This document shows positions 4,201 through 41,657 of a stretch of 44,509 nt of DNA, in pieces. A program made the translations under genes and the position numbers. Positions within the stretch are counted from its first letter, which is position 1. Each line of letters opens with the position of its first letter. The stretch is taken from the sequence record PZ049723.1; one strand, 5' to 3'. The stretch is from a phage. Under the pieces are notes generated by a model. That model was not told the origin of the DNA. It did no database searches and was given only the letters and a program-made list of their open reading frames with translations.

Positions 4201-4686
4201 CTCACGCGGGTCGGCGTTATCCGTATACACAACGATCTTATAGTCGATGCGCCCGCCCACCAGGTCGCCATTATCTTCGCTAGTGTACAGGGCCGGAATG
4301 CCGATTCGAATGCGCACGGCGTCAAGACTGGTGTCATTAATCTGGCGCACCCACGGCGTGCCGTTTTCCAGTTTTACGCCGACTGACTGCTCACTTTCCA
4401 CCGCTGAAAATCCGTGGATCACATCCTGGTGCTGTGTGCCGGGGCGGAACTCCACGCGCGCGCCGGGGAAGTTTTCCGACAGGTCGGCGTTCTGGATCGG
4501 TGTTCCGTCCAGATATACGCGCTGCCGTAATTCGCTGGCGCTGGTAATACTTTCGAATTCACCTTCCCCCAGCGCAAGCAAGATGCGGATTTTAGCCAGG
4601 GAATGCAGGCTATCCGGCGTTTCCTGCGGGGTGTGCTGTTTGCCGCCGCCGCCTTTATGGCCCGTGACGTCGTAGATAATCGTCAT
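1267..4686 (-). CDS. Tail tip / host specificity protein (lambda J-like central tail fibre)
   Basis: 1139-aa ORF, ATG at 4686 overlapping (ATGA) the upstream gene; size and position after I/K/L-like genes are typical of J; fibronectin-like middle region. Confidence 0.85.
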   Translation of the reverse strand: MTIIYDVTGHKGGGGKQHTPQETPDSLHSLAKIRILLALGEGEFESITSASELRQRVYLDGTPIQNADLSENFPGARVEFRPGTQHQDVIHGFSAVESEQSVGVKLENGTPWVRQINDTSLDAVRIRIGIPALYTSEDNGDLVGGRIDYKIVVYTDNADPREFTFAAVGKTMSLYERDHRIELPPNVNTGWRVEVHRITADSTSAKVVNDIRVQSITEIIDARLRYPLTALLFVEFDAKAFQNIPRVSIKCKGRKVLVPNNYDPINHTYSGDWDGTFKRAWTDNPAWHWYDICITERFGLGRRIKPQMLNRYALYQIAQRCDQLVSDGNGGREIRFKNDMYIQSQTDAWTVLKDLAAIFAGMTWWGNQMLNIVSDQPVAAVSHTITNASVIDGRFDYASGSQKTRYSTFAVAYGNPKNHYEDAIATGQRVELVRRHKINRLDITAIGCTRESEAQRRGHWALISNQLDQQVSFKVGMEGLFFIPGSVVAIADTNISGGFEIRGGRLLSDPGTRTVLNTDSEITFRPGDKFLVRTDSGNVETREIASVNGNKVTLKTALDADPIPDQPFCVDGDDIQLQKFRITDLEYDDSTSTFSVRGIEYNDSKYDAVDNGARLDPGIFTQVPDGVMKGPESVTITPSQISSQGQLITNVDIVFPPVKDAVVYEIQWRRTSLQNMEIQWGNDWVNIPRTASNGAHIPNVFSGNYQARVRAIGMGEISSPWVSSAITPIEGRLGGLNAPIITNAISGLHQILWKWNHNNAATDISYTELEVRKTGETEWKFLTNVPYPGSEYAQTSLEFGIYQQLRARVADKIGNLSDWSAPFEGQVSDNVDEYMKGLDDEFLTSEDGKRFQEAIDTMPQGIYEAMLTDAQQLFNARAEYKGIYAEISVAYNVAAEAHQAVAQLETLIGTRLDDAEAAIHTLQTAQSTQEQAFAQYQQTVAAKFSEQEAAIQQVQTATADVAGALAEYKTQVAAQFGQQSAAIEQKMTSSFNHSGGSATYSLKAGVTYNGTYYDAGMQLSVVTSGSAVKSRIAFKADQFYIMHPSNGSLSSAFIVDGGQVYIDTARIKNASINFAQITDTLQSNNFDGSTRGWRLGKDGTFINLGTGSGGGTKQTNTNYSVKDANGVLRVQIGELTGRW

Positions 4687-5300
4687 TCGTTCAAGTCCTC
4701 GGTTACGATTCCGGCAGAAATAATAGCGCCGCCGATCTCACGCTCGCCCCATAATACACCAAGTGCCGTGCCTTGCGCGGTCGTGTTCACAGGCCCGCCG
4801 AACGCGTACGACGCCTTGTTATCAACGTCCTGCCGTGTCTGCAATCCCTTCGGTTGCGGAGACAGCAATTGCATAACGCCCCCCAGCGCCATCGACATCC
4901 CGAACGAAAACGTCGCTGCGCCGATAGAGGCCGCGGTTGCCGCTGAAGCTCCAAAAGCGGCAGTCGCAAGCCCGCCGGTATAGAACGACGCCACCACGAT
5001 TGCTACACCCGCCAGCAATTGGCCCAGTCCGCTTTTTGCACCAGTCATAACCGGCGCGATGGTCACTACGCGATTGCCGTGGAACTCGCCTAGCTCATCG
5101 TAGCCGGTCAGAGTGTGATTGCCCTTGCGCACTTTGAACATCATGTTGTCCAGGTGGGCCGACATTAGAAAGTCCTGTAAGCCGGGTAACTTCACGCACA
5201 GGCCGGTGATACCCTCGCCCGGTGTGAAGCAGTCCAGCTTATGCACTTTACCAAAACGACGTCCTAAGACGCCGTACAATTTAAATGTGGTCATTGCCAT
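4683..5300 (-). CDS. Tail assembly protein I-like
   Basis: 205 aa; C-terminal Gly/Ala-rich hydrophobic segment; position between K-like and J-like genes. Confidence 0.65.
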   Translation of the reverse strand: MAMTTFKLYGVLGRRFGKVHKLDCFTPGEGITGLCVKLPGLQDFLMSAHLDNMMFKVRKGNHTLTGYDELGEFHGNRVVTIAPVMTGAKSGLGQLLAGVAIVVASFYTGGLATAAFGASAATAASIGAATFSFGMSMALGGVMQLLSPQPKGLQTRQDVDNKASYAFGGPVNTTAQGTALGVLWGEREIGGAIISAGIVTEDLNE

Positions 5301-15244: not shown

Positions 15245-15946
15245 TTACTCGTCGCCCATTTTAGCGATGATATCCCCGGCCTGTTTGGTGAGATCGGTGA
15301 TACCGAAGCTATGGCCCATCGTAATTTTCGACTTCACATCTTCGACAACCTGCGTCGGTTTGCTAGGCGCGCCGCCTGCTGGCGTGCCAGCCAGGACGGA
15401 TGCAAAATCGGCGTTATTACGGAACTCTTTTTCCAGCTCTTCCATAGTCAGCGCGGACGGTTTGCCATCCTGCAATACTCGCACTTTCAAGCTGCCGTCT
15501 TCGCCGTCTTCCAGCGTCAGGCGGTCCATTACGTGGCGTTGCATGATGCCCGCATTCTTACCGAACAGCTTCGACGCCAGGTCTTTGGCAGCGCTGCCGA
15601 TGGTTAGATCGTGGATCTGCTTGCGGTAGGCTTCGATTTTTCCCGATGTGTCTGCTTCGTGTTTCGCAAACTTATCTTTCCAGGACTTGTCGATCGCTTC
15701 GAGGTCGCCATTTTTGCGCGCGGCGGCTTCCTCTTTCTCTTTCGCAAGGCGCTCAGCTTCGGCGCGGCGTTCGGCTTCTGCTTTCTTCTCGCTCACCAGC
15801 TTCGCGTTGTTGTCTTTCAGACCCTTAATTTCCGCCTGTACTTCTTCTGCGGTCATGAACGTTGATTTATACCCGTCGCCATCGGCAACAAAAAGCGCCT
15901 TCATACCTTCCGGCAACGCGTCATATTCTGCTTTAGTAAGTTTCAT
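15245..15946 (-). CDS. Scaffolding protein (putative)
   Basis: ATG at 15946 with GGGGGA RBS; 233 aa, highly charged with an Ala/Glu/Lys/Arg coiled-coil stretch; directly upstream of major capsid gene. Confidence 0.55.
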   Translation of the reverse strand: MKLTKAEYDALPEGMKALFVADGDGYKSTFMTAEEVQAEIKGLKDNNAKLVSEKKAEAERRAEAERLAKEKEEAAARKNGDLEAIDKSWKDKFAKHEADTSGKIEAYRKQIHDLTIGSAAKDLASKLFGKNAGIMQRHVMDRLTLEDGEDGSLKVRVLQDGKPSALTMEELEKEFRNNADFASVLAGTPAGGAPSKPTQVVEDVKSKITMGHSFGITDLTKQAGDIIAKMGDE

Positions 15947-16036
15947 GCTATCCCCCTGGGATTGTGGCAGAGCGGGCCACCCGCTCGACTTCACGCTTCT
16001 AATATTATCAGCGATAAAAATAATCGCAAAATTCGC

Positions 16037-16065
16037 TTGCAATCATCGTATTGGTTGCATATATT
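16037..16065 (+). promoter_or_regulatory. Sigma70-like promoter with embedded TTGGTTGCA motif pair
   Basis: TTGCAA (16037-16042), 17-bp spacer, TATATT (16060-16065); TTGGTTGCA at 16051-16059 and 16065-16073; GAGGA RBS and ATG at 16095 follow. Confidence 0.45.
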
Positions 16066-16094
16066 GGTTGCACACCAACAACGAGGACACAAAA

Positions 16095-16859
16095 ATGAGA
16101 CTGACGAAAGACATTAAAAACCAGATTCTGGCTAACATCCTGCGCGACCACGAAATCGCGACCGAAGCCAAATCAATAATGATGGACTCGCGCGACCTTG
16201 CGTACGCCATTACGCTGGACTGTATGCCGGAAGGCATTCGCACGTTCGCCGAGCTATTCGCGCACATTGAAGCAATCAGCGATGACCCGTCGCAGATGTA
16301 CGGCGTCTGCGTATACACCAACAAGGCGACGTATAGTTATAACACCGACCGCCCGAAAGGTATCGGCAGCGTTTACGACGCCACTTTCGAAATCAATGCG
16401 GGCGGAAATGTGCGCACACTGTCATTGAGCGGTGACGGACGACAATACCGAGTACATCGCGGATACTGGGAATATAAATACATGAATAAGCTATCTCCCG
16501 ATCTCGGCGATATTGTACCTGGGTACGAAGAAGTAATGCTGGCTTCTGTGTGCGAAGTGGACGAGGATGGGAAAGCGCTGCCGATCTATAAGCCGCGCTG
16601 TCGTGCAGAGTTCCCGGCGGATCATGATTTCTGCAAGCGCCTTGACCGTAACGATAAGGCCCGCCGCGATTTGCGAGCTAAGTATGACGCGTTCAAACTC
16701 ACCGTTACCGGTGTGCTGGACCTGCACAATACTGACAAGAAGCTGATTAAGGCATGGCCTGAAGTTGAGCAATTCATACCATACCCGGACAAGCAAAAAT
16801 CCACGGCGGTGGCGCTGGACGTGAAAACACTCAACGAGATTTGCGGCATTCCGCGCTAA
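16095..16859 (+). CDS. Hypothetical protein; opposite-strand moron inside the structural cluster
   Basis: 255-aa ORF with own promoter-like sequence, GAGGA RBS and bidirectional terminator; only plus-strand gene between 234 and 30437; no recognisable motif. Confidence 0.6.
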   Translation: MRLTKDIKNQILANILRDHEIATEAKSIMMDSRDLAYAITLDCMPEGIRTFAELFAHIEAISDDPSQMYGVCVYTNKATYSYNTDRPKGIGSVYDATFEINAGGNVRTLSLSGDGRQYRVHRGYWEYKYMNKLSPDLGDIVPGYEEVMLASVCEVDEDGKALPIYKPRCRAEFPADHDFCKRLDRNDKARRDLRAKYDAFKLTVTGVLDLHNTDKKLIKAWPEVEQFIPYPDKQKSTAVALDVKTLNEICGIPR

Positions 16860-16864
16860 CAAAA

Positions 16865-16893
16865 AGGGGCCATTACGGCCCCTTAATTATTTG
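16865..16893. terminator. Bidirectional hairpin terminator
   Basis: aggggcc-attac-ggcccct stem flanked by AAAAA upstream and TAATTATTTG downstream; between convergent gene ends. Confidence 0.55.
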
Positions 16894-17103
16894 CTGCAAC
16901 TCCAGCACCTGCGCCCTTAGCTTCGCCCCGCATTCCATATTTTTAACATCAATCATCAAATCTTCGTCGGGGTCCGCGGACGGGTTATCGAACTTGCACG
17001 GCGGTCGCAGTGCCGACTCCGTTAGCGGCATCAACGGCACGCTGCTTGATCCGCACGCGCTCAGCGTCAAAACTACAATCAGGGCGGTTAGGGCGCGTAA
17101 CAT
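16873..17103 (-). CDS. Outer-membrane spanin-like lipoprotein (o-spanin candidate)
   Basis: 76 aa; signal peptide with lipobox LTLSAC; Pro-rich; overlaps the 3' end of the preceding membrane-protein gene in another frame. Confidence 0.5.
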   Translation of the reverse strand: MLRALTALIVVLTLSACGSSSVPLMPLTESALRPPCKFDNPSADPDEDLMIDVKNMECGAKLRAQVLELQQIIKGP

Positions 17104-17314
17104 ATTTTACAACCTCTTTTGTGATAGTCCGGTATTCCACGTCGCGGGCTTGTTCTGCCTGCACGGAGCGCTCAATTACTTTAGTTTGCTGCCGTTGGGC
17201 TTGGGATTGCGCTTCTTGCGCCGCCTTCGCCACTACGCCAGCGCGGTAGGAGTCACCTAGCCAGAATCCTACCGCCAGACCTATAACCAGTCCAATAGCC
17301 GCATACTTAATCAC
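16985..17314 (-). CDS. Inner-membrane spanin-like protein (i-spanin candidate)
   Basis: 109 aa; N-terminal transmembrane helix then Gln/Ala/Glu-rich helical region; GTG start at 17314 with GGGGG RBS; overlapped by the lipoprotein gene. Confidence 0.45.
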   Translation of the reverse strand: MIKYAAIGLVIGLAVGFWLGDSYRAGVVAKAAQEAQSQAQRQQTKVIERSVQAEQARDVEYRTITKEVVKYVTRPNRPDCSFDAERVRIKQRAVDAANGVGTATAVQVR

Positions 17315-23803: not shown

Positions 23804-24295
23804 TTATGCTGCGTTACGTCCGATCTTCTCGGCAACGTCCCACTGCTTCCCATCAAACAACGCCTGTCTGCCGATTGCTCGACGGACAAGTCCCTTCAGC
23901 ACTTCCCCGCCTTGCTTGCGGAACTGTGGCAGCGTAGCACGGACCTTCGCCCAGTCACCCAGGCGCACCGCATCATCGAAATCACCGGCTACGTCGTCCG
24001 GCATGATCGGACCAGGACCGGCATTGATTACCAGGTCCACCAGCGCGTCGAATTGCGCCTGATTGATGCTCGGGTGTGCGTACTTGTTCACCCAGTTCTC
24101 GGCATATGCCACATCGCGCTTGAGTAGCTCCAGTGCTTCCGCACGGGTAATGCTCCGCGGCGGGTTAGTGCCGGTGTGACCATAGCCCCAGGTATACAGG
24201 CCGCGGGCCTGCTCTTTCTTAGTCGCGAAATACGGCACTGGGCTGAACGCCTCCCATGCTGCCGTAAATCGTAGACCGTTGTCACTGAATCGCAT
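23804..24295 (-). CDS. Endolysin, GH24 (T4 lysozyme-like) family
   Basis: 163 aa; N-terminal catalytic pattern E..F....Y then TWGYGHTG; follows two membrane-protein genes. Confidence 0.8.
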   Translation of the reverse strand: MRFSDNGLRFTAAWEAFSPVPYFATKKEQARGLYTWGYGHTGTNPPRSITRAEALELLKRDVAYAENWVNKYAHPSINQAQFDALVDLVINAGPGPIMPDDVAGDFDDAVRLGDWAKVRATLPQFRKQGGEVLKGLVRRAIGRQALFDGKQWDVAEKIGRNAA

Positions 24296-24527
24296 GTTTT
24301 ACCCCATTCAAAACAGCATTACGCAGTGTGCGCAATGCAAACAGCCATATTAACGCGGTCCAGGTGGTATCAGATACGTCTCCGGTTTGCAACAATCCGA
24401 TAAAACAGACCATTGCCGTTAACAGATACAGCACCCGACCGAAAAAGCCATCCCGGACGGACGGCGCATACACGTTAAACAGGGACGAAGCCCCGATGAT
24501 AACAAACAACAGGACGGAGATAATCAT
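24282..24527 (-). CDS. Holin/antiholin-like small membrane protein
   Basis: 81 aa with two or three hydrophobic helices and charged C-terminus; GGGGGG RBS; overlaps endolysin start. Confidence 0.5.
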   Translation of the reverse strand: MIISVLLFVIIGASSLFNVYAPSVRDGFFGRVLYLLTAMVCFIGLLQTGDVSDTTWTALIWLFALRTLRNAVLNGVKHAIQ

Positions 24528-24814
24528 TTTGCACCCCCCGGAAGTCGGAACGACGCAATAGTCTCCCTGATCCGGTCGGCGATTGGCATCCAGAAGATGG
24601 CAGTTACGAAGCCCAAACCGGCGACAGTGCGCTCACCCGACAAACCAGCCCACTCAGCGATAGCCGGTGCGCCAAATATGGCACACAGGAAGCCAACTAC
24701 AACATACAAAACGAAGTTTAGCGGCCCCTTCGTAGCCTCACCATGAATGCGTGCGCCTACGAAGCCACCCGCCAGACATGCCAGGGCGAATAGCCACTCG
24801 TTTAGCTTATCCAT
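24524..24814 (-). CDS. Holin-like membrane protein
   Basis: 96 aa with three predicted transmembrane segments; first gene of lysis cassette. Confidence 0.55.
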   Translation of the reverse strand: MDKLNEWLFALACLAGGFVGARIHGEATKGPLNFVLYVVVGFLCAIFGAPAIAEWAGLSGERTVAGLGFVTAIFWMPIADRIRETIASFRLPGGAK

Positions 24815-27433: not shown

Positions 27434-27664
27434 TTAATCTTTTAAATCATCATCGGTCGCAGAAAGCGTGATGGGTATACTCGTTTTAATGACAATATTC
27501 GACGACCCGTAGATGGCCCCGGTGTGCGGATCGGTATAAAAACCGAGCACGCCGCGCTCGACCATATCGTCGATTGCCTTCGTCGATGTGCCACCTTTCG
27601 CCAGCCCAGCCTGGCGGACAATTGCCGATTTACTGAATCCGGTATGGTCCGGGTTATCTTCCAT
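27434..27664 (-). CDS. Small HTH DNA-binding protein (putative regulator)
   Basis: ATG at 27664 overlaps the helicase stop (ATGA); 76 aa; helix-turn-helix-like SKSAIVRQAGLAKGGTSTKAIDDMVERG; a longer in-frame start at 27691 is possible. Confidence 0.5.
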   Translation of the reverse strand: MEDNPDHTGFSKSAIVRQAGLAKGGTSTKAIDDMVERGVLGFYTDPHTGAIYGSSNIVIKTSIPITLSATDDDLKD

Positions 27665-29040
27665 CAGTTTTTCCAGTGCCGCATAAAGCACTTTCTCTTT
27701 TCGTTGCGCGGTCCCGCGGCGTTCTCTTCCTTAACTGCTGCCTTGCCCGCGGCCTTCGCCTGTTCGATGGCGAACGGTGCCAGGGCGACCGGTACGAGGT
27801 ACAGAGTCTCGTCGCGAGGCGTGGAGGCAATCGGCTTGACGTCCCAACCGGCGACCACATCACCGAAGTCCGGCCCGGTGCTGGTGGACTGGTGGGCTTC
27901 GAACGCCTCGGACTTGCGGAGATCCACCTTAACCTTGCACTTGAGCAGGACGAAGCCGCGCGGCGCTTGCTTGATGCCGTTACGTGCCTTTTCGTGATAC
28001 AGGTTAAGTTGTCCCGGCTGGTTGTCGTCCGGCTGTTCCAGGAAGAACGCGGAATCAACAGCACCATGAAGCGCGCCGGACCCGCGTGGCGTTCTGCTGC
28101 CGTTTGCACCTTTAGCAGGGTGGTGGATGACGCCCGCACTGCCGCCTGTATTTTCCGCAATGGCCTTCAGCGCCTTGACCACTTCGCCCATATCGCTGGC
28201 GTTGTTCTCGTCGAACGGTTTAGCATCGGCGGACCGCAGCGCAACAGTCTGGTTGAGTGAGTCGAATGCCACCAGGCCAACCGGTTCGCCGTTAGCGGTG
28301 CGGTTGATAAAGCTGATAACTTCGCGCAAGCCCGATTTGCTGGTGATATCCCAGCCGCGTGACTGCAGATCGATAATGTGCAGCTTGTCCAGGTCGTGCT
28401 CGTATTTAATCTGCAATGCCTCCTTACGCTGGTTGGAGGCTTCGCCACCTTCCGCGTCGAAATAGAAGCAATGAGACTGGACGACCTTCGCACCGCCAAA
28501 CGGAATACCCGCGGCAACCGCACCCATCTGCCCCAGCACGTAGAACGATTTACCGATGTTCGATTCGCCAGCCATATACCAGGTCGATTTGAAGTTAATC
28601 AACCCCTCGATGATCGGGTCGTGCTTACTGAACAGCGCAACCGGCTCGTTGTCCAGGTCTGCATCGGTGCACACGCCGTATTCTTCGCCGTCGCCAACTG
28701 CATCAACGATATGTTCATAGCAGGATTCCACTTCCTCGTCGTCCAGTCCTGGAAGGATGGCGGCGATTTGCTTGCGGGACATATTGTGTGGCTCGACGTT
28801 CAGGTGGTCCGGGATCCCGATAAGACGCAGCGCCAGGTGCTGGTGTCTGTTCAGTTCCGAGCAACACTCGTTGCCGGTGTGCATACACTTGAAACGGATC
28901 TCGCCATCCTTGACCATGATAGCCGTCGACCCTTCGCCGCTGTGCAGATGTTCGTTCGGGCACGGCACTTCATAACCCCGACCGGACGACAGCGGTTCGA
29001 ATCCGGCCTGGAAGCACCAATCCAGAATGCCGTCAGCCAC
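27664..29040 (-). CDS. Replicative helicase with N-terminal Zn finger (RecA-fold, RepA/DnaB-like)
   Basis: Walker A GESNIGKS and Walker B-like LVAFDSL; N-terminal Cys/His cluster (CPNEH ... CMHTGNECC); ORF opens immediately after an in-frame TAA and has only a GTG start. Confidence 0.65.
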   Translation of the reverse strand: MADGILDWCFQAGFEPLSSGRGYEVPCPNEHLHSGEGSTAIMVKDGEIRFKCMHTGNECCSELNRHQHLALRLIGIPDHLNVEPHNMSRKQIAAILPGLDDEEVESCYEHIVDAVGDGEEYGVCTDADLDNEPVALFSKHDPIIEGLINFKSTWYMAGESNIGKSFYVLGQMGAVAAGIPFGGAKVVQSHCFYFDAEGGEASNQRKEALQIKYEHDLDKLHIIDLQSRGWDITSKSGLREVISFINRTANGEPVGLVAFDSLNQTVALRSADAKPFDENNASDMGEVVKALKAIAENTGGSAGVIHHPAKGANGSRTPRGSGALHGAVDSAFFLEQPDDNQPGQLNLYHEKARNGIKQAPRGFVLLKCKVKVDLRKSEAFEAHQSTSTGPDFGDVVAGWDVKPIASTPRDETLYLVPVALAPFAIEQAKAAGKAAVKEENAAGPRNEKRKCFMRHWKN

Positions 29041-29696
29041 CCCATCATCGCCCTGGGTAAGCTCGCGGCGTACTTCCTCTTCTCCACCCCCAGCTTATCC
29101 GCCAGGCGGAGCAGACGACGGACGCTGGCGCGTTTGCCGTAGTGGCACTTAACGACAGACTGCTGATGTGGCAGGTACATAAGGCGGTTTGTGTCTTTAG
29201 TACAATCGTCGAAGTCCACATCTGACAGACCCAGTTGGTGTAATAGTGCATACTGGACGCGGCCCAGGTCTTCAGCCGGTACAGGCTTGTCCGTGAGCAC
29301 CAGGAAACGGGCGCAACGCGTGCCGCCTTTCAGCGGGTGGCGGTCGCCGGTTGTGGTGTGAAATACGTGCTCCAGTCCCGCGTCGATGAACGCCTTACGG
29401 CAGCGGCGTAGGGTGCGGGTGTCGGTACGGTCGATATCGAAGAACATGATCGAGCGGTCCACCGCACTGGTCTTACGACGCAATCCGTCACGGGTATACG
29501 CCACGATGCCATCGGCCTTACGCTTGCGGCGCGCATACTCGGCTTTATCTTCCGTCTTGTTGATATGCACCGAGGAGATTTCTTTCGCATCATTGATAAA
29601 GGCGAAAAACTCTTCGGTAGTCATCTGGAAGTTTTCCGCCCTGGCTTTTTCGCCTTTTTTAGCGGGTCGTGTTACAGCGAATTTAATTAAGCTCAT
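28851..29696 (-). CDS. Primase-like replication protein, N-terminal part; 3' end overlaps helicase out of frame
   Basis: ATG at 29696; DxD-like FFDIDRTD and HTTTGDRHP motifs; last ~60 codons are Arg/Ser/Cys-rich and read as the wrong frame of the helicase N-terminus; G5 run at 29087-29091. Confidence 0.4.
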   Translation of the reverse strand: MSLIKFAVTRPAKKGEKARAENFQMTTEEFFAFINDAKEISSVHINKTEDKAEYARRKRKADGIVAYTRDGLRRKTSAVDRSIMFFDIDRTDTRTLRRCRKAFIDAGLEHVFHTTTGDRHPLKGGTRCARFLVLTDKPVPAEDLGRVQYALLHQLGLSDVDFDDCTKDTNRLMYLPHQQSVVKCHYGKRASVRRLLRLADKLGVEKRKYAASLPRAMMGWLTAFWIGASRPDSNRCRPVGVMKCRARTNICTAAKGRRLSWSRMARSVSSVCTPATSVARN

Positions 29697-29706
29697 TGCC
29701 GTGGCC

Positions 29707-30036
29707 TTACTTAGAAGTTTTATTATTGCGTACCCAAGAGCGCACTGTGCTCTGATTAATTCCGGTCAACTCGGCAATCATCGCCCAGGATTTGCCCTCG
29801 GCGCGCAAACGGATAACCTGCTTTTTGTATTCTTCCATTTCTTCATTGTGTTTTTGCAGCTTGCTTGCTGCCGTACCGTTGAGTAATTCCAGCCGGGCGC
29901 GCAATTCTTTTTCGACACTGCGCAGGCGCTCGATTTCAAATAACACCGCACCCACGGCATCGGTATAAGCCCATGACCGGCTTGTCTCACTGCAAACAGT
30001 CTTCGTTAACATTTCGATTGCGTCGTTTACATTCAT
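29707..30036 (-). CDS. HTH transcriptional regulator (LuxR/sigma region-4-like C-terminal HTH)
   Basis: 109 aa; C-terminal SWAMIAELTGINQSTVRSWV; first gene of the leftward operon from the divergent promoter region. Confidence 0.6.
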   Translation of the reverse strand: MNVNDAIEMLTKTVCSETSRSWAYTDAVGAVLFEIERLRSVEKELRARLELLNGTAASKLQKHNEEMEEYKKQVIRLRAEGKSWAMIAELTGINQSTVRSWVRNNKTSK

Positions 30037-30067
30037 TGTTCTGCCCTCAGTTGGTTAATGACCAACG

Positions 30068-30096
30068 AAACTACACCTAAAACCGCAAGGTGTCAA
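30068..30096 (-). promoter_or_regulatory. Leftward early promoter
   Basis: Minus strand TTGACA (30096-30091), 17-bp spacer, TAGTTT (30073-30068); about 30 nt upstream of the regulator gene RBS. Confidence 0.45.
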
Positions 30097-30166
30097 ATCC
30101 TTTGGATATTGAAACGGGCGCGCACGCGTGTAATAATAATTCCCGTCTCATTGTCTCTTATTGGTT

Positions 30167-30201
30167 AGCGCCGTCGCATTTTGCCTCGGCGCTTTTTTTT
30201 T
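30167..30201 (+). terminator. Rho-independent terminator in divergent promoter region
   Basis: agcgccg / cggcgct 7-bp stem with 13-nt loop followed by nine T residues. Confidence 0.6.
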
Positions 30202-30211
30202 AAATTAGTTG

Positions 30212-30241
30212 TTGACACCCATCCTGCAACCAATCTATTAT
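30212..30241 (+). promoter_or_regulatory. Rightward early promoter (strong sigma70 consensus)
   Basis: TTGACA (30212-30217), 18-bp spacer containing TGCAACCAA (30225-30233), TATTAT (30236-30241). Confidence 0.6.
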
Positions 30242-30437
30242 TCTCCCCGTCGACAGGATGCAGGACGCAAACTGGAGAGGGGCAACGCAGGGGCCGGATC
30301 GAAGTGTCAGGATTCCCAACCGTGATTATATAACCAGGTCCACTACCCGAAGGGGAGAACGCGTAACCTGGCAATATGTTAAGGCCACCGACGAAGTTAA
30401 CTGCCGACACCTAAACTTAACCAATCGGAGATATACC

Positions 30438-32869: not shown

Positions 32870-33104
32870 AGTATTCGCAATCTTATTGATGTTTTTGCTC
32901 GGCGCGCTGGGCTTTATCCTGCATTGCGTGCAAGGCGTGTTAATGGTGGCCTGGATGATTCGCCATCCAACCCAATGGCTGGATGATGGATACAGCACCA
33001 TTGCCGTGGCGTGGATCGCGAGACATGGCGACCGACCGCCGCTAAGCTGGATCGAGAACGCCACCAACTACGTTACCCGAAATCTTTTTAATGAAAATGC
33101 TTGA
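32862..33104 (+). CDS. Small membrane protein
   Basis: 80 aa with two hydrophobic helices; ATG overlaps the upstream stop. Confidence 0.45.
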   Translation: MNKVFAILLMFLLGALGFILHCVQGVLMVAWMIRHPTQWLDDGYSTIAVAWIARHGDRPPLSWIENATNYVTRNLFNENA

Positions 33105-33129
33105 CCGCTTAGGCGCAACCAAGTAGATT
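33101..33129 (+). promoter_or_regulatory. Promoter-like sequence upstream of SSB-like gene
   Basis: TTGACC (33101-33106), 17-bp spacer containing GCAACCAAG (33115-33123), TAGATT (33124-33129); second GCAACCAAG at 33131-33139. Confidence 0.4.
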
Positions 33130-34209: not shown

Positions 34210-36497
34210 AAGACTTCGAACGTCTGTTTCTCGACACCGAGACATTTAGCGATGTGGACCTGAAGAAAGTGGGCGCATACGCCTACGCGGAACACCCAAC
34301 TACTGAGATTATGATTTGCACCTACGCCATCGACGAGGGGCGCGTGCAGACATGGGATTGCACCGAATCCCCTACAATGCCGCGTGAACTGCGCAAGGCG
34401 CTCCGCCGGGTATCCCGCAAGAAAGCAAAAATCGTGATGGCTAACGGCCTCCTGTTTGACCGCCTGGTCATTCGCGAGAAGTGGGGCATTGACCTGCCAG
34501 TGTGCCAGATCGAAGACACCATGATTATGGCCTTTCGCCACGCGCTGCCCGGTAGCCTCGATATGCAGTGTCAGGTACTGGGCGTTGACGCAGAGCACGC
34601 GAAGGATAAGGCGGGCAAGGCGCTGATCAAACGGTTCTGTAAGCCTACCCCTAAGACCTACAAAATCCGCCGCTACACTCGCGAGACTCACCCAGAAGAG
34701 TGGGCCAAATTTCTGCGCTATGCCGCGCTGGATATTGTTGCCATGCGTGAAGTCTACTGGCGCATACCGGACTGGGGCAACTCACCGAAGGAAGACGAAA
34801 TCCTGCTCATCGACCAGATTATTAACGACCGAGGCTTCTATGTGGACGTTGACCTGGCGAACGCCGCGATCAAGGCGGTGCGGGCGCATAAGGAAGAATT
34901 GAAGGAAGAGGCATGGGAGCGGTTTGGCGGCAAGCTGACCGGAAACGACTTCCTGCCGATTCTGCGTGATATTGCCCCGGCGTTCACGATCCACAACGCG
35001 CAGAAATCCACGCTGAACGACTTGCTTGAAGACCCGGACTTCCCCGACGAAGGCAAAGCGCTTATCGAAATGCGCCTCGGCGCGTCATCAACGGCATCGA
35101 CTAAATACAATCCGCTCGTTAATGGCCTGTCTGCCGATGGTCGTCGCCGTGGGTGTATTCAGTATGGCGGCGCAAAGCGCACGCTACGCTGGGCTGGTAA
35201 AGGCTTCCAGCCGCAAAACCTGGCACGCGGCGAGTATAGCGACGACCACGAAGGGAAGATTAAGCGCCGCGAAGGCGAGAGCGACGTCTCGTTTTGGGTG
35301 CGGTCGCACATGCTCACCAATGGCATCAATTCCCTGTTACGCGGGACAGCGCACTGGGCGTACGACATATCGAAGCTGACCGCCTCGACCGTTCGCGGGT
35401 GCATTATCCCTGCAAAGGGCAAGAAGTTTGTCGTAGCTGACTACTCCAACGTGGAAGGGCGCGGCCTTGCCTGGATCGCTGGCGAGAAAACCGCGCTAAT
35501 GGTGTTTAAGGCCGGGCGCGATATCTATTGCGAGACTGCCGGTAAGATGTTCGGCCTGGACCCGGACTACATCAAAGCCAACCGCAAAGACTTGCGCCAG
35601 ATCGGTAAGGCGTGTGAGTTGGGGCTGGGCTATGGTGGCGGCGTGGCGGCGTTCTTACAGTTCGCTAAAAACCTGGGCCTCGACCTTTACACTATGGCGG
35701 ACGTCATGAAAGGCACGTTCCCGGATCACATTTGGGCAGCGGCTAAACGGGGTTATGAATACGCCCGCATTAACGAAGCGAAGCGCCCGCCGAAGCCTGG
35801 CAAGAAAGACGAGCGACCAACATACATACTGCCGAAAAACGTATGGCTTACCTGTGACGCGATCAAACGTATGTGGCGTGAGGCTCACCCGAAGACGGTA
35901 GCCTTTTGGGCCGAGCTTGAGGACGCGGTGTTGTGTGCAATCCGCAATCCGGGCAAAGCCTACTGGGCTGGCGCTAACGTTCGCCCAGACGGTAGAAAAG
36001 CGCTCAAGATTGTGCGCACGAAGGCGAAGCACGACCCAACCTTCGACGAGGAGCGCGACGACCCGAACGCTGCGGGGTGGTGGTTGAAAATTGAGTTGCC
36101 GTCAGGGCGCATCATGAGCTATCCCGGTATCGCGCTGTCTGTCACGACCGAGATCGACGAAGACACCGGCAAGAAGCGCACCAGCACACGCATCAAATAC
36201 CAGGGCGAGAATCAGACGACGCGCCAGTGGGGTTTCCAGTACACCTACGGCGGCAAACTAACGGAGAACATCGTACAGGCGTTGTGCCGCGATATTCTCG
36301 CGTGGTCCATGCCTGGCGTTGAAGCCGCCGGATATGAGATCGTCCTGTCAGTGCACGATGAATTGGTCACCGAAGTGCCGGACACCGACGACTACACCAC
36401 CGAGGAGCTTTGCGCGCTGATGTGCGACCTGCCTATTTGGGCAAAAGGCTTCCCACTTGCCGCCGAAGGCGACATTATGTACAGGTACAGGAAGTAA
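34206..36497 (+). CDS. DNA polymerase, family A, with 3'-5' exonuclease domain
   Basis: 763 aa; exonuclease motif LFLDTETFS near N-terminus; polymerase motif KQIGKACELGLGYGGG; motif C VLSVHDELV. Confidence 0.9.
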   Translation: MKDFERLFLDTETFSDVDLKKVGAYAYAEHPTTEIMICTYAIDEGRVQTWDCTESPTMPRELRKALRRVSRKKAKIVMANGLLFDRLVIREKWGIDLPVCQIEDTMIMAFRHALPGSLDMQCQVLGVDAEHAKDKAGKALIKRFCKPTPKTYKIRRYTRETHPEEWAKFLRYAALDIVAMREVYWRIPDWGNSPKEDEILLIDQIINDRGFYVDVDLANAAIKAVRAHKEELKEEAWERFGGKLTGNDFLPILRDIAPAFTIHNAQKSTLNDLLEDPDFPDEGKALIEMRLGASSTASTKYNPLVNGLSADGRRRGCIQYGGAKRTLRWAGKGFQPQNLARGEYSDDHEGKIKRREGESDVSFWVRSHMLTNGINSLLRGTAHWAYDISKLTASTVRGCIIPAKGKKFVVADYSNVEGRGLAWIAGEKTALMVFKAGRDIYCETAGKMFGLDPDYIKANRKDLRQIGKACELGLGYGGGVAAFLQFAKNLGLDLYTMADVMKGTFPDHIWAAAKRGYEYARINEAKRPPKPGKKDERPTYILPKNVWLTCDAIKRMWREAHPKTVAFWAELEDAVLCAIRNPGKAYWAGANVRPDGRKALKIVRTKAKHDPTFDEERDDPNAAGWWLKIELPSGRIMSYPGIALSVTTEIDEDTGKKRTSTRIKYQGENQTTRQWGFQYTYGGKLTENIVQALCRDILAWSMPGVEAAGYEIVLSVHDELVTEVPDTDDYTTEELCALMCDLPIWAKGFPLAAEGDIMYRYRK

Positions 36498-36775
36498 TGA
36501 CACCAGAAGGCAAGATTCAAAGTCACCTGATGAGACGGGTGAAAGATGTTGGCGGATTCTGCCGAAAACTGGCATGGGAGGGGCGCGCAGGTGCGCCCGA
36601 CCTGATTATTATCATCAACGGCAAAATAGTGTTCGTCGAAGTGAAGCGCCCCGGCGGAAAACCGAAGCCGCACCAGGTACGTGAACATGAGAGGATGGCC
36701 CGCCGCGGCGCGGACGTTCGCGTTATAGACAACATCGCCGACTGTGATTTATTGGTTGCTGAATTGGTCGCATAG
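36497..36775 (+). CDS. VRR-NUC domain nuclease
   Basis: ATG at 36497 overlapping the polymerase stop; 92 aa; GAPDLIIIINGKIVFVEVKRPGGKPKPHQ matches the VRR-NUC D...E.K core. Confidence 0.7.
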   Translation: MTPEGKIQSHLMRRVKDVGGFCRKLAWEGRAGAPDLIIIINGKIVFVEVKRPGGKPKPHQVREHERMARRGADVRVIDNIADCDLLVAELVA

Positions 36776-39708: not shown

Positions 39709-39741
39709 TTGGTTGCATAACCGTATTGGTTGCATTATATT
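39709..39741 (+). promoter_or_regulatory. Promoter-like sequence formed by tandem TTGGTTGCA motifs
   Basis: TTGGTTGCA at 39709-39717 and 39726-39734; TTGCAT (39713-39718), 17-bp spacer, TATATT (39736-39741). Confidence 0.4.
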
Positions 39742-39743
39742 GA

Positions 39744-39769
39744 GGGTGTCCGGTTTGGACGCCCTTTTT
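39744..39769 (+). terminator. Rho-independent terminator overlapping predicted transcription start
   Basis: gggtgtcc-ggttt-ggacgccc 8-bp stem (one G-U pair) followed by TTTTT. Confidence 0.5.
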
Positions 39770-40031: not shown

Positions 40032-40496
40032 ATGAAAATTTTACAAGAAGAGAAAAATTACTGGGCCGCGCAATGCCTTGAAGCCCGCGAACAGGCCGAA
40101 CGTGCGAACGCGTTGGCGGACACCAACCAGGCGCTATATGAAGGAGAGAAGAAAGTGCGCCAGGAGCTAGCGGAGCGCTTCGGACTGCTATTCGAATTGA
40201 TGGGGATTATGCAGCGCACCGGATACACCACCAGCGTTGCACTAAACCGCATCACTGCCGATGGTTTGCGTGAACATTGTAAACGTGCTGAGGAGTACGT
40301 GCGACCGAAGGGTCGCACGTCTAAGGTTGACCGTAAAGATTTGGTGCTTATGGCGTGGCGCAACCCTACAAATGGCAGCTTCTACCCGGACGCGCGCCCG
40401 CTTAGTGCCGAGGAATCAAAGCGCGTGCAACGCATTATCAAAACCGGCAATAAAATCGCCCTGTATGCGATAGATCCAGATCATGCAGAAGAGTGA
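40032..40496 (+). CDS. Hypothetical protein
   Basis: 154 aa; N-terminal coiled-coil-like region; no motif recognised. Confidence 0.45.
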   Translation: MKILQEEKNYWAAQCLEAREQAERANALADTNQALYEGEKKVRQELAERFGLLFELMGIMQRTGYTTSVALNRITADGLREHCKRAEEYVRPKGRTSKVDRKDLVLMAWRNPTNGSFYPDARPLSAEESKRVQRIIKTGNKIALYAIDPDHAEE

Positions 40497-41173: not shown

Positions 41174-41640
41174 AATTACTGATTTGTGATCTGGATGGCG
41201 TTATTAACGGTTCAAGTGATGCGCGCGCCGACCTGGTGCCGGGGATAAAAACGAAATCAACATTTTGGGCGAAGTGGCACAAAGCGCACGTACGCGAAGA
41301 CCTGAACATGGATATGCTGCCGCTACTGCGCATGTACAAAGAGCAAGGCTTCGAGATCGCGTATCTGACCAACCGGCAGCGCGAATGTTGGGACACCACC
41401 GCCGAGCAATTGGAGGTCTTCCCCGTAGGTCGATTGTTCATGCGCCACATGCTGGACGACACCCCGCCGCCAGAGTTTAAGGCGTGCGCCGTTTTCAAAA
41501 TGGTCTGCTATGCGGACGTGTCGGAACTGGTCATCATTGAAGACTGTCCGAAGAACATCGCGGCAATTCGTCGGGCGTGTGGCGATCTGGTCCCGAAAAT
41601 TTACGCAATAAACGTTGCAAAATTCACTTGCAACCAATAG
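41170..41640 (+). CDS. HAD-superfamily phosphatase
   Basis: 156 aa; N-terminal HAD motif I ICDLDGVI; GAGGAA RBS. Confidence 0.6.
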   Translation: MKLLICDLDGVINGSSDARADLVPGIKTKSTFWAKWHKAHVREDLNMDMLPLLRMYKEQGFEIAYLTNRQRECWDTTAEQLEVFPVGRLFMRHMLDDTPPPEFKACAVFKMVCYADVSELVIIEDCPKNIAAIRRACGDLVPKIYAINVAKFTCNQ

Positions 41641-41657
41641 GTTGGTTGCACTATAGT
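41628..41657 (+). promoter_or_regulatory. 22-bp perfect palindrome TGCAACCAA-TAGG-TTGGTTGCA embedded in promoter-like sequence
   Basis: TTGCAA (41628-41633), 18-bp spacer made of the palindrome, TATAGT (41652-41657); a GC hairpin (41667-41687) and AAGGA RBS follow. Confidence 0.45.

Follow-up and report, generated by a model that had tools for sequence, protein, structure and literature searches.

The plus-strand open reading frame (ORF) at 16095-16859 of the 44,509-nucleotide phage DNA analysed here (record PZ049723.1; the whole stretch is called the window below) is, by sequence comparison, nmad5, an orthologue of a published Dhillonvirus gene and thus already known both as a family and in the genus. 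We lean towards the reading that its product, Nmad5, is an accessory protein without catalytic function that belongs to the phage's non-structural programme and would benefit the phage in its natural hosts, and we regard the label of DNA modification enzyme as unsupported as a mechanism. The window itself belongs to a Dhillonvirus, an HK578-like E. coli siphophage. New here are a natural deletion of nmad5 in phage HK578, a slot upstream of the gene that holds three families of cargo genes, and a putative operator, TTGGTTGCA, distributed over the whole phage. Also new are a predicted fold with no solved or enzymatic relative and the location of family members just after the N gene in lambdoid phages.

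The original prediction, made from the letters of the sequence alone, had recognised no motif in the protein. A full-length Nmad5 domain is nevertheless present (Pfam PF18757, 197.3 bits against a gathering threshold of 27 bits, E=4.1e-58), with residues 1-253 corresponding to profile positions 1-206 of 206. The protein also matches PHROG 1965 (E=2.7e-61), a family listed as being of 'unknown function', and the record of phage Pandora71 already labels the orthologue 'Nmad5 domain-containing protein'. The PADLOC and NCBIfam libraries gave no match for the Nmad5 protein, and the 'NMAD' domain of DefensePredictor was not used, as the paper does not state which Nmad family is meant. Orthologues of the window protein are 84-98% identical to it and all 254 amino acids (aa) long, the copy in phage SM_S22 being 89.8% identical. 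In a 31-sequence alignment L217, W221, L246, N247 and P253 are invariant, and M1, R2, L3, T4, G103, G104, C250 and G251 are at least 90% conserved; conserved columns are mostly hydrophobic, glycine or proline and lie in the termini. The window protein carries the family-wide motifs, namely the N-terminal MRLT, the central GG, and the C-terminal L-x3-W-P and T-L-N-x2-C-G-x-P, together with a lysine, K216 (context NTDK-K216-LIKAWPEV), that adjoins the family-invariant L217, W221 and P222.

Within the genus nmad5 is close to universal. At 80-99% identity, 159 phage records match the region 15900-17000 (137 of the 159 cover at least 80% of it), and a threshold of 60% aa identity retrieves nmad5 from about 150 records, compared with the 159 Dhillonvirus-level records found with the capsid gene (approximately 94%). 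Pairwise ratios of nonsynonymous to synonymous substitution rates (dN/dS) of 0.05-0.16 across six phages indicate strong purifying selection, and the G+C content of the gene (52.3% overall and 62% at third codon positions, GC3) is like that of the rest of the genome. This occurrence, composition and selection mark nmad5 as an almost core accessory gene of long residence; it is no recent insert. The earlier proposal of an independently transcribed insert therefore stands as regards independent transcription, which is supported by the gene's own sequence signals and non-structural character, and fails as regards insertion.

Classical morons of lambdoid late operons, such as lambda bor and lom, carry their own promoter and terminator and are dispensable for lytic growth. 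The window gene resembles them in having its own promoter and terminator, at the level of sequence, inside a late operon and in its dispensability. It differs from them in being near-universal in the genus and genome-typical in composition. The patchy presence and atypical composition of a moron are found instead in the low-GC cargo genes that lie upstream of nmad5 in other isolates.

In the type phage HK578 nmad5 is missing. A tblastn search finds nothing, and the order at the locus is promoter, cargo gene gp06, ribosome-binding site (RBS) and ATGAGACTGACGAAA, joined directly to the terminator hairpin. The deletion is clean, about 750 bp long, and lies between short A-rich repeats, with the first five nmad5 codons remaining (HK578 stretch 2440-2500; window 16095-16884). 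As read from the genome, this natural deletion is independent confirmation that nmad5 is dispensable on laboratory hosts; together with the published engineered deletion it shows that plaques form without the gene. Comparison with related phages, suggested by the original prediction as a check on variability, thus shows a locus that varies both by this loss and by three cargo genes in the 5' untranslated region (UTR) of other isolates.

Function of Nmad5 and its link to the Tmn defence

The gene has been studied in the Dhillonviruses SM_S22 (CDS6) and SM_A8 (CDS7) (Yamashita et al. 2025, Commun Biol 8:290, PMC11846954). Independent mutants of these two phages that escape the Tmn defence carry the same lysine-to-glutamate change, K216E/K296E; reversion restores Tmn sensitivity, and introducing K216E confers escape (PMC11846954). 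An engineered nmad5 deletion is viable, and the deleted phage stays Tmn-sensitive and does not escape (PMC11846954). Cloning of nmad5 failed in that study, apparently from toxicity, which left co-expression with Tmn untestable there, and the authors interpret Nmad5 as a DNA-modification protein (PMC11846954). The window gene shares with those of SM_S22 and SM_A8 its position between scaffold and spanin genes, its promoter and terminator, and the escape residue, present here as K216. It differs from the SM_S22 gene in that the SM_S22 record has a 334-aa product, and the Tmn phenotype is known for the SM phages whereas the window phage is known from sequence.

These genetics bear directly on the host-interaction, exclusion or anti-defence function first suggested for the ORF. 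They tie the gene to Tmn (PMC11846954), as that suggestion would have it; an anti-defence role of the wild-type gene does not follow, as deletion has no effect. Wild-type nmad5 is not a demonstrated anti-defence or exclusion gene, because its deletion leaves Tmn sensitivity unchanged and only a K216E-type substitution alters it. Since deletion gives no escape and Nmad5 shows no similarity to RIIB, the phage T2 protein that activates Tmn, K216E seems to give a conserved C-terminal surface a new or altered function and not to remove a trigger.

A distinct protein of the phage may also bear on Tmn. The product of 40032-40496 (+) is a homologue, at 82% identity, of the proven anti-Tmn protein SM_S22 ORF35, whose family carries the PHROGs label 'DNA ligase', which is probably wrong. 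Whether the window homologue has anti-Tmn activity is not predictable from its sequence, since small sequence differences alter the efficacy of ORF35-type proteins (PMC11846954).

The remote-homology searches and structure prediction advised in the original prediction place the protein among the Nmad5 family and give no PDB relative. An AlphaFold2 model built from the 31-sequence alignment (predicted local distance difference test score, pLDDT, 75.5; predicted template modelling score, pTM, 0.75) has an N-terminal helical hairpin, a small beta-sheet (75-110), a lineage-specific insert of low confidence (118-131), and a long helix (178-209) followed by short helices bearing K216 and W221-P222. 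The C-terminal tail is highly conserved yet predicted with low confidence, as would be expected for a docking peptide. Foldseek against BFVD returns other Nmad5 proteins (E=7.8e-28 and 4.9e-11, TM-scores 0.59-0.80), whereas against the PDB the best E is 3.3, with no solved or enzyme-like relative; a profile search of PDB sequences found nothing.

The genomic contexts of the family are diverse. Membership of PF18757 was confirmed, at 87-243 bits, for every homologue mentioned here. Lambdoid phages (HK542_033, PhiR12_2_star and Stx-converting phages) gave the highest Pfam scores, 239-243 bits, and in them the gene comes first after the antiterminator gene N in the PL operon, upstream of erf/bet and abc2. 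Like nmad5 of the window, these are non-structural accessory genes, and no hypermodification genes are annotated in the regions inspected. They differ in lying on the same strand as their neighbours, whereas the window gene is isolated on the opposite strand of a late cluster. Relatives of about 26% identity stand near the head of an early replication operon, divergent from a helix-turn-helix (HTH) gene, and the replication module of these phages (DUF2800 exonuclease, Enc34-type single-stranded DNA-binding protein, PolA and SNF2) resembles that of the window phage. In C130_2 and PTXU04 the gene lies within blocks of small hypothetical genes, and in M6 and CN1 it lies inside a thymidine-hypermodification cassette. 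Only the M6-type context among those inspected involves base modification. In the myophage tail module of Vibrio phage 1.093.O, the gene next after that for the tape measure (4557-5276) encodes an Nmad5 protein of 175 bits, a second case of Nmad5 embedded among structural genes.

The M6-type context is the natural starting point for the view that Nmad5 acts in DNA modification, as the enzyme itself or as an accessory which that enzyme requires, with Tmn sensing the modification and K216E changing it. The family is named for its association with nucleotide-modification genes, and in M6, SN1 and CN1 the Nmad5 gene stands between aGPT-Pplase1 and a thymidylate-synthase-like hydroxymethylase. The window phage has two DNA methyltransferases elsewhere (SM_S22 annotation mapped onto the window), and modification is the interpretation given in PMC11846954. 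The functional label itself reportedly goes back to a guilt-by-association inference of 2013. Comparison with Pseudomonas phage M6 gp56 and SN1_019 shows what is shared, namely PF18757 (116-181 bits), a length of about 190-250 aa, a single-domain build and the N- and C-terminal motifs; BLAST, however, aligns only the C-terminal third of gp56 to the window protein, at about 37% identity. The M6 gene is flanked by aGPT-Pplase, kinase, rSAM, PLP and hydroxymethylase genes, none of which is annotated in SM_S22. The SM_S22 annotation, which corresponds to the window gene by gene at the protein level, contains no aGPT-Pplase, 5-hmdU kinase or thymidylate-synthase homologue, with the limit that its hypothetical proteins were not all profile-searched. 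Even in M6 no role for gp56 has been shown in the published reconstitution work: the M6 pathway paper attempted reconstitution in vitro with gp51-gp55 only and never mentions gp56.

Family members of 243 bits, moreover, sit right after N in temperate lambdoid phages, and to our knowledge there are no reports of DNA hypermodification in the temperate lambdoid phages with Nmad5. Restriction-modification systems are comparatively effective against Dhillonviruses, and the unaltered Tmn sensitivity of the nmad5 deletion is hard to reconcile with a sensed modification that depends on Nmad5. With no enzyme-like fold and no solved relative to set beside these points, we consider the modification view unlikely. 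Its label should not be taken as a mechanism, because of the lack of an enzyme-like fold, the early contexts in lambdoid phages, the absence of annotated hypermodification genes in the lineage and the loss of the gene in HK578.

A second view, which we think less probable again, is that Nmad5 is a direct protein trigger of Tmn, as RIIB is, and that K216E abolishes productive engagement. Independent escape mutants in two phages share the same conserved lysine, with sensitivity restored by reversion (PMC11846954), and Tmn is activated by the direct binding of a phage protein, T2 RIIB, in which a point mutation can separate binding from activation (PMC13001434). Nmad5 and RIIB are alike in being non-structural phage proteins in which single substitutions decide the Tmn outcome (PMC11846954, PMC13001434). 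They part ways in that RIIB alone activates Tmn and RIIB nonsense mutants escape it (PMC13001434), while loss of nmad5 gives no escape; a phage deleted for nmad5 and still Tmn-sensitive cannot have Nmad5 as its sole trigger (PMC11846954). No sequence or profile similarity links the two proteins (hhalign probability 0.2%), and the failed cloning precluded co-expression (PMC11846954).

A head-assembly or virion protein, as the position among scaffold, capsid and head-morphogenesis genes and the Vibrio member after a tape-measure gene might suggest, is very improbable given the opposite strand, the separate promoter and terminator, the viability of HK578 and of the engineered deletion without the gene, the absence of a 254-aa protein among the 24 phage proteins detected in a lysate proteome of the Dhillonvirus EE09, and the placement of most family members in early, replication or recombination operons. 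The original prediction would have yielded to universal conservation combined with a virion role; conservation indeed proved near-universal (about 150 against 159 records), while a virion role is unsupported by the EE09 proteome and by HK578.

We therefore return to the accessory-protein reading. In this explanation nmad5 would be a self-contained, monocistronic unit on the opposite strand between the scaffold and spanin genes, encoding a cytoplasmic, phage-specific protein. Transcription by host RNA polymerase would begin at a sigma-70-type promoter in which two TTGGTTGCA operators flank the -10 element. This promoter architecture is common to the promoters of the replication operon, ssb and the operon of the anti-Tmn homologue, which suggests that nmad5 is probably co-regulated with non-structural genes and not with the late operon, and the bidirectional terminator would insulate it from the convergent spanin operon. 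Nmad5 itself may be a binding or adaptor protein and not an enzyme, acting in the non-structural phase on DNA-metabolism or host-interaction machinery. Its partner-binding surface would be the invariant C-terminal module at about 176-254, comprising the long helix, K216-L217, W221-P222 and the tail TLNxxCGxP. The fitness benefit would arise only in natural hosts, through counter-defence or host takeover, and K216E would be a neomorphic change in the C-terminal surface and not the loss of a trigger.

Several points weigh against this explanation. The adaptor idea draws on negative evidence, the missing fold match, and on a model of moderate confidence (pLDDT 75.5), and the activity, partner and expression timing it assigns to Nmad5 proteins are all deduced from sequence. 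The toxicity met in cloning probably concerns the mis-annotated 334-aa ORF, which includes the promoter region, and is therefore hard to interpret. The TTGGTTGCA motif also occurs at the promoter 23337-23308 of exonuclease and terminase genes, so that a shared motif is no proof of early expression. A confirmed family member is found in the tail module of a myophage, and Nmad5 genes recur within hypermodification cassettes, a genuine association for which a model of host interaction alone gives no account.

Gene model and local architecture

The features of the locus, by coordinates in the window, are as follows.

16095..16859 (+): nmad5 coding sequence, with ATG at 16095 and a stop codon ending at 16859; 255 codons, that is 254 aa plus stop; carries K216
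16083..16087 (+): nmad5 Shine-Dalgarno sequence GAGGA, 7 nt 5' of the ATG, read directly from the sequence; kept in HK578 despite loss of the ORF
16073..16082 (+): 5' UTR segment caccaacaac, the point of cargo-gene insertion in other Dhillonviruses; empty in the window
16037..16065 (+): putative sigma-70-like nmad5 promoter from a consensus scan, with -35 TTGCAA at 16037-16042, a 17-nt spacer and -10 TATATT at 16060-16065
16051..16059 (+): TTGGTTGCA copy 1, exact match, in the promoter spacer directly 5' of the -10
16064..16072 (+): TTGGTTGCA copy 2, exact match, over the last part of the -10 and the presumed start of transcription
16864..16884 (both strands): bidirectional intrinsic terminator hairpin AAGGGGCC-ATTAC-GGCCCCTT, which would end both nmad5 (+) and the spanin operon (-)
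likely true start 15946 (-): scaffold gene, neighbour of nmad5; product name from the annotation of relatives
16873-17103 (-): o-spanin gene, convergent with nmad5; its N-terminus reads LTLSAC, by our reading a lipoprotein-type signal
16985-17314 (-): Rz-like spanin gene, overlapping the o-spanin gene; product name as annotated in relatives

The GAGGA RBS, the promoter with two TTGGTTGCA copies and the bidirectional terminator are thus as first described, except that the 255 aa originally given to the protein are 254. The location between the scaffold gene and the spanin pair is likewise confirmed by the ORF map and by the annotation of relatives. When the SM_S22 proteins are mapped onto the window, nmad5 is the one gene between 27 and 30036 that does not lie on the minus strand, and plus-strand genes resume at about 30058. 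The gene had been called the sole plus-strand one between 234 and 30437; its uniqueness holds, and the right boundary of the minus block has to be moved to 30036.

On sequence grounds we regard the ORF as a real gene with a secure start codon. Conservation of the N-terminus MRLTKDIK extends to relatives as distant as 23% identity, with MRLT(K/N) as the common beginning, and an in-frame upstream extension of the ORF is closed by stop codons in four of six phages. The SM_S22 record gives a 334-aa product with 80 extra N-terminal residues that overlap the scaffold gene and the promoter. The longer frame, of 334 or 403 aa, was rejected as the true product: it overlaps scaffold gene and promoter, is interrupted by stops in four of six phages, and is missing from all distant homologues. 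The 334-aa SM_S22 product is, by this comparison, an annotation artefact. The 'K296' of the literature stems from that annotation and equals K216 in the 254-aa numbering.

The promoter match by itself is not significant, with one sigma-70-like match in the 2.2-kb region scanned against 1.9 expected by chance. The nmad5 promoter is made credible by elements that are invariant in seven phages and by the over-representation of TTGGTTGCA: the -35, the -10 and both TTGGTTGCA copies are unchanged in seven Dhillonviruses while the intervening 8-9 nt of the spacer vary. The terminator hairpin at 16864-16884 is G+C-rich and scores on both strands in a terminator scan, and the 56-nt stretch around it folds at -18.7 kcal/mol (z = -2.9). 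It is stronger on the minus strand (a 9-bp stem plus TTTTTGTT), overlaps the o-spanin stop codon, and is annotated at the orthologous locus in the records of PTXU06 and HK578.

Upstream of the nmad5 promoter a strictly conserved A/T-rich segment holds, on the minus strand at 16002-16029, a weak TTGCGA-16-TAATAT match below the scan threshold, and at 16011-16027 a palindrome, GCGAT-N7-ATCGC. The weak match could be a divergent promoter from which transcription of the scaffold and capsid genes starts anew beyond the spanin terminator. The lysis cassette of the phage is split: the spanin pair at 16873-17314 is placed among the head genes, some 7 kb away from the two holin genes and the endolysin gene (23807-24814).

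Two further observations concern other parts of the window. The primase-helicase gene at 27437-29696 (-) is split over three frames, with frameshifts near 29075 and 27700 beside C-rich runs, whereas in SM_S22 it is a single 754-aa ORF; the frameshifts are most likely indel errors in the window sequence rather than the mark of a pseudogene, because the gene is essential. At approximately 36494-36500 there is no counterpart of the SM_S22 endonuclease VII gene (29663-30265), which follows the DNA polymerase gene, and HK578 has a different small gene there.

The TTGGTTGCA motif as a putative operator

The 9-mer TTGGTTGCA occurs in 12 exact copies in the window, against 0.44 expected, and none of 100 shuffled sequences reaches 12. 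The copies, at 16051, 16064, 23323, 26284, 26976(-), 27007(-), 30225(-), 39709, 39726, 41629(-), 41642 and 44461, are all kept at orthologous positions in SM_S22. Often paired and in either orientation, they occupy one of three places in sigma-70-like promoters: the spacer beside the -10, the -10 together with the start site, or the -35. The associated sites, apart from those of nmad5, are as follows.

30212-30241: promoter TTGACA-18-TATTAT, the best promoter of its region, heading the replication operon; TTGGTTGCA-associated
33101-33129: promoter preceding the gene for single-stranded DNA-binding protein (ssb); TTGGTTGCA-associated
39709-39750: double-TTGGTTGCA promoter (copies 39709 and 39726) before the operon with the anti-Tmn homologue
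41628-41657: TTGGTTGCA-associated promoter; the hyp31-30 genes are also among those with motif-bearing promoters
26976 and 27007 (-): TTGGTTGCA pair, of which 26976 carries a leader, TTGGTTGCAcaccaaca..GAGG..ATG, near-identical to that of nmad5
23337-23308: TTGGTTGCA-associated promoter upstream of exonuclease and terminase genes

At the promoters 30212-30241, 33101-33129, 41628-41657 and 23337-23308 the motif holds the same place relative to the -10 as copy 1 of nmad5. Because its orientation and position vary, we infer that TTGGTTGCA is an operator bound by a phage regulator and not a sigma contact, and the 109-aa HTH protein encoded at 29710-30036 is a candidate for that regulator. The sharing of the motif suggests that nmad5 is probably co-regulated with the other host-polymerase promoters of the phage. 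As proof that nmad5 belongs to the early class the motif serves only in part, being found at the exonuclease/terminase promoter as well.

The 5' UTR cargo slot and what the locus may mean

The 5' UTR between the second TTGGTTGCA copy and the nmad5 RBS, empty in the window, holds three unrelated genes in other isolates, and the match to the window is split by a cargo insertion in 17 of the 30 best-matching records. The cargo genes are these.

135-140 aa, low GC: in PTXU06, Zar3M, HK578 and SM_W22
about 104 aa, low GC: in JLBYU60 and similar phages
53 aa, low GC: in EK99P-1

All three families have 45-48% GC and are of unknown function (relatives' stretches L003 2204-2611, L017 948-1316 and L018 997-1158), and the cargo genes gave no Pfam, PHROG or PADLOC match. 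The 135-aa gene has homologues of 52-56% identity in Serratia and Erwinia phages. Judged from distribution and composition, the cargo genes behave as exchangeable morons and are candidates for anti-defence functions. A conserved two-gene module was considered and rejected, as the 156-158-aa gene found upstream of nmad5 in distant relatives does not match the cargo gene of PTXU06 and HK578.

Taken further, the plus-strand unit might be a small counter-defence islet, in which an operator-controlled promoter and a swappable cargo slot accompany a non-enzymatic, early Nmad5 that binds a component of host or phage DNA metabolism or of defence. We put this forward tentatively, as a possibility to which we give well under an even chance. 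If true, it would overturn the enzyme label for the family across lambdoid, M6-like, Dhillonvirus and Vibrio phages, and it would explain K216E as a neomorphic change of a binding surface that blocks Tmn activation. Of further interest are how the proteins of this widespread phage family work biochemically, the cargo slot and the operator system. More practically, nmad5 is one determinant of whether therapeutic Dhillonviruses are stopped by Tmn, and the correct numbering of the protein (254 aa, K216) is useful for phage engineering.

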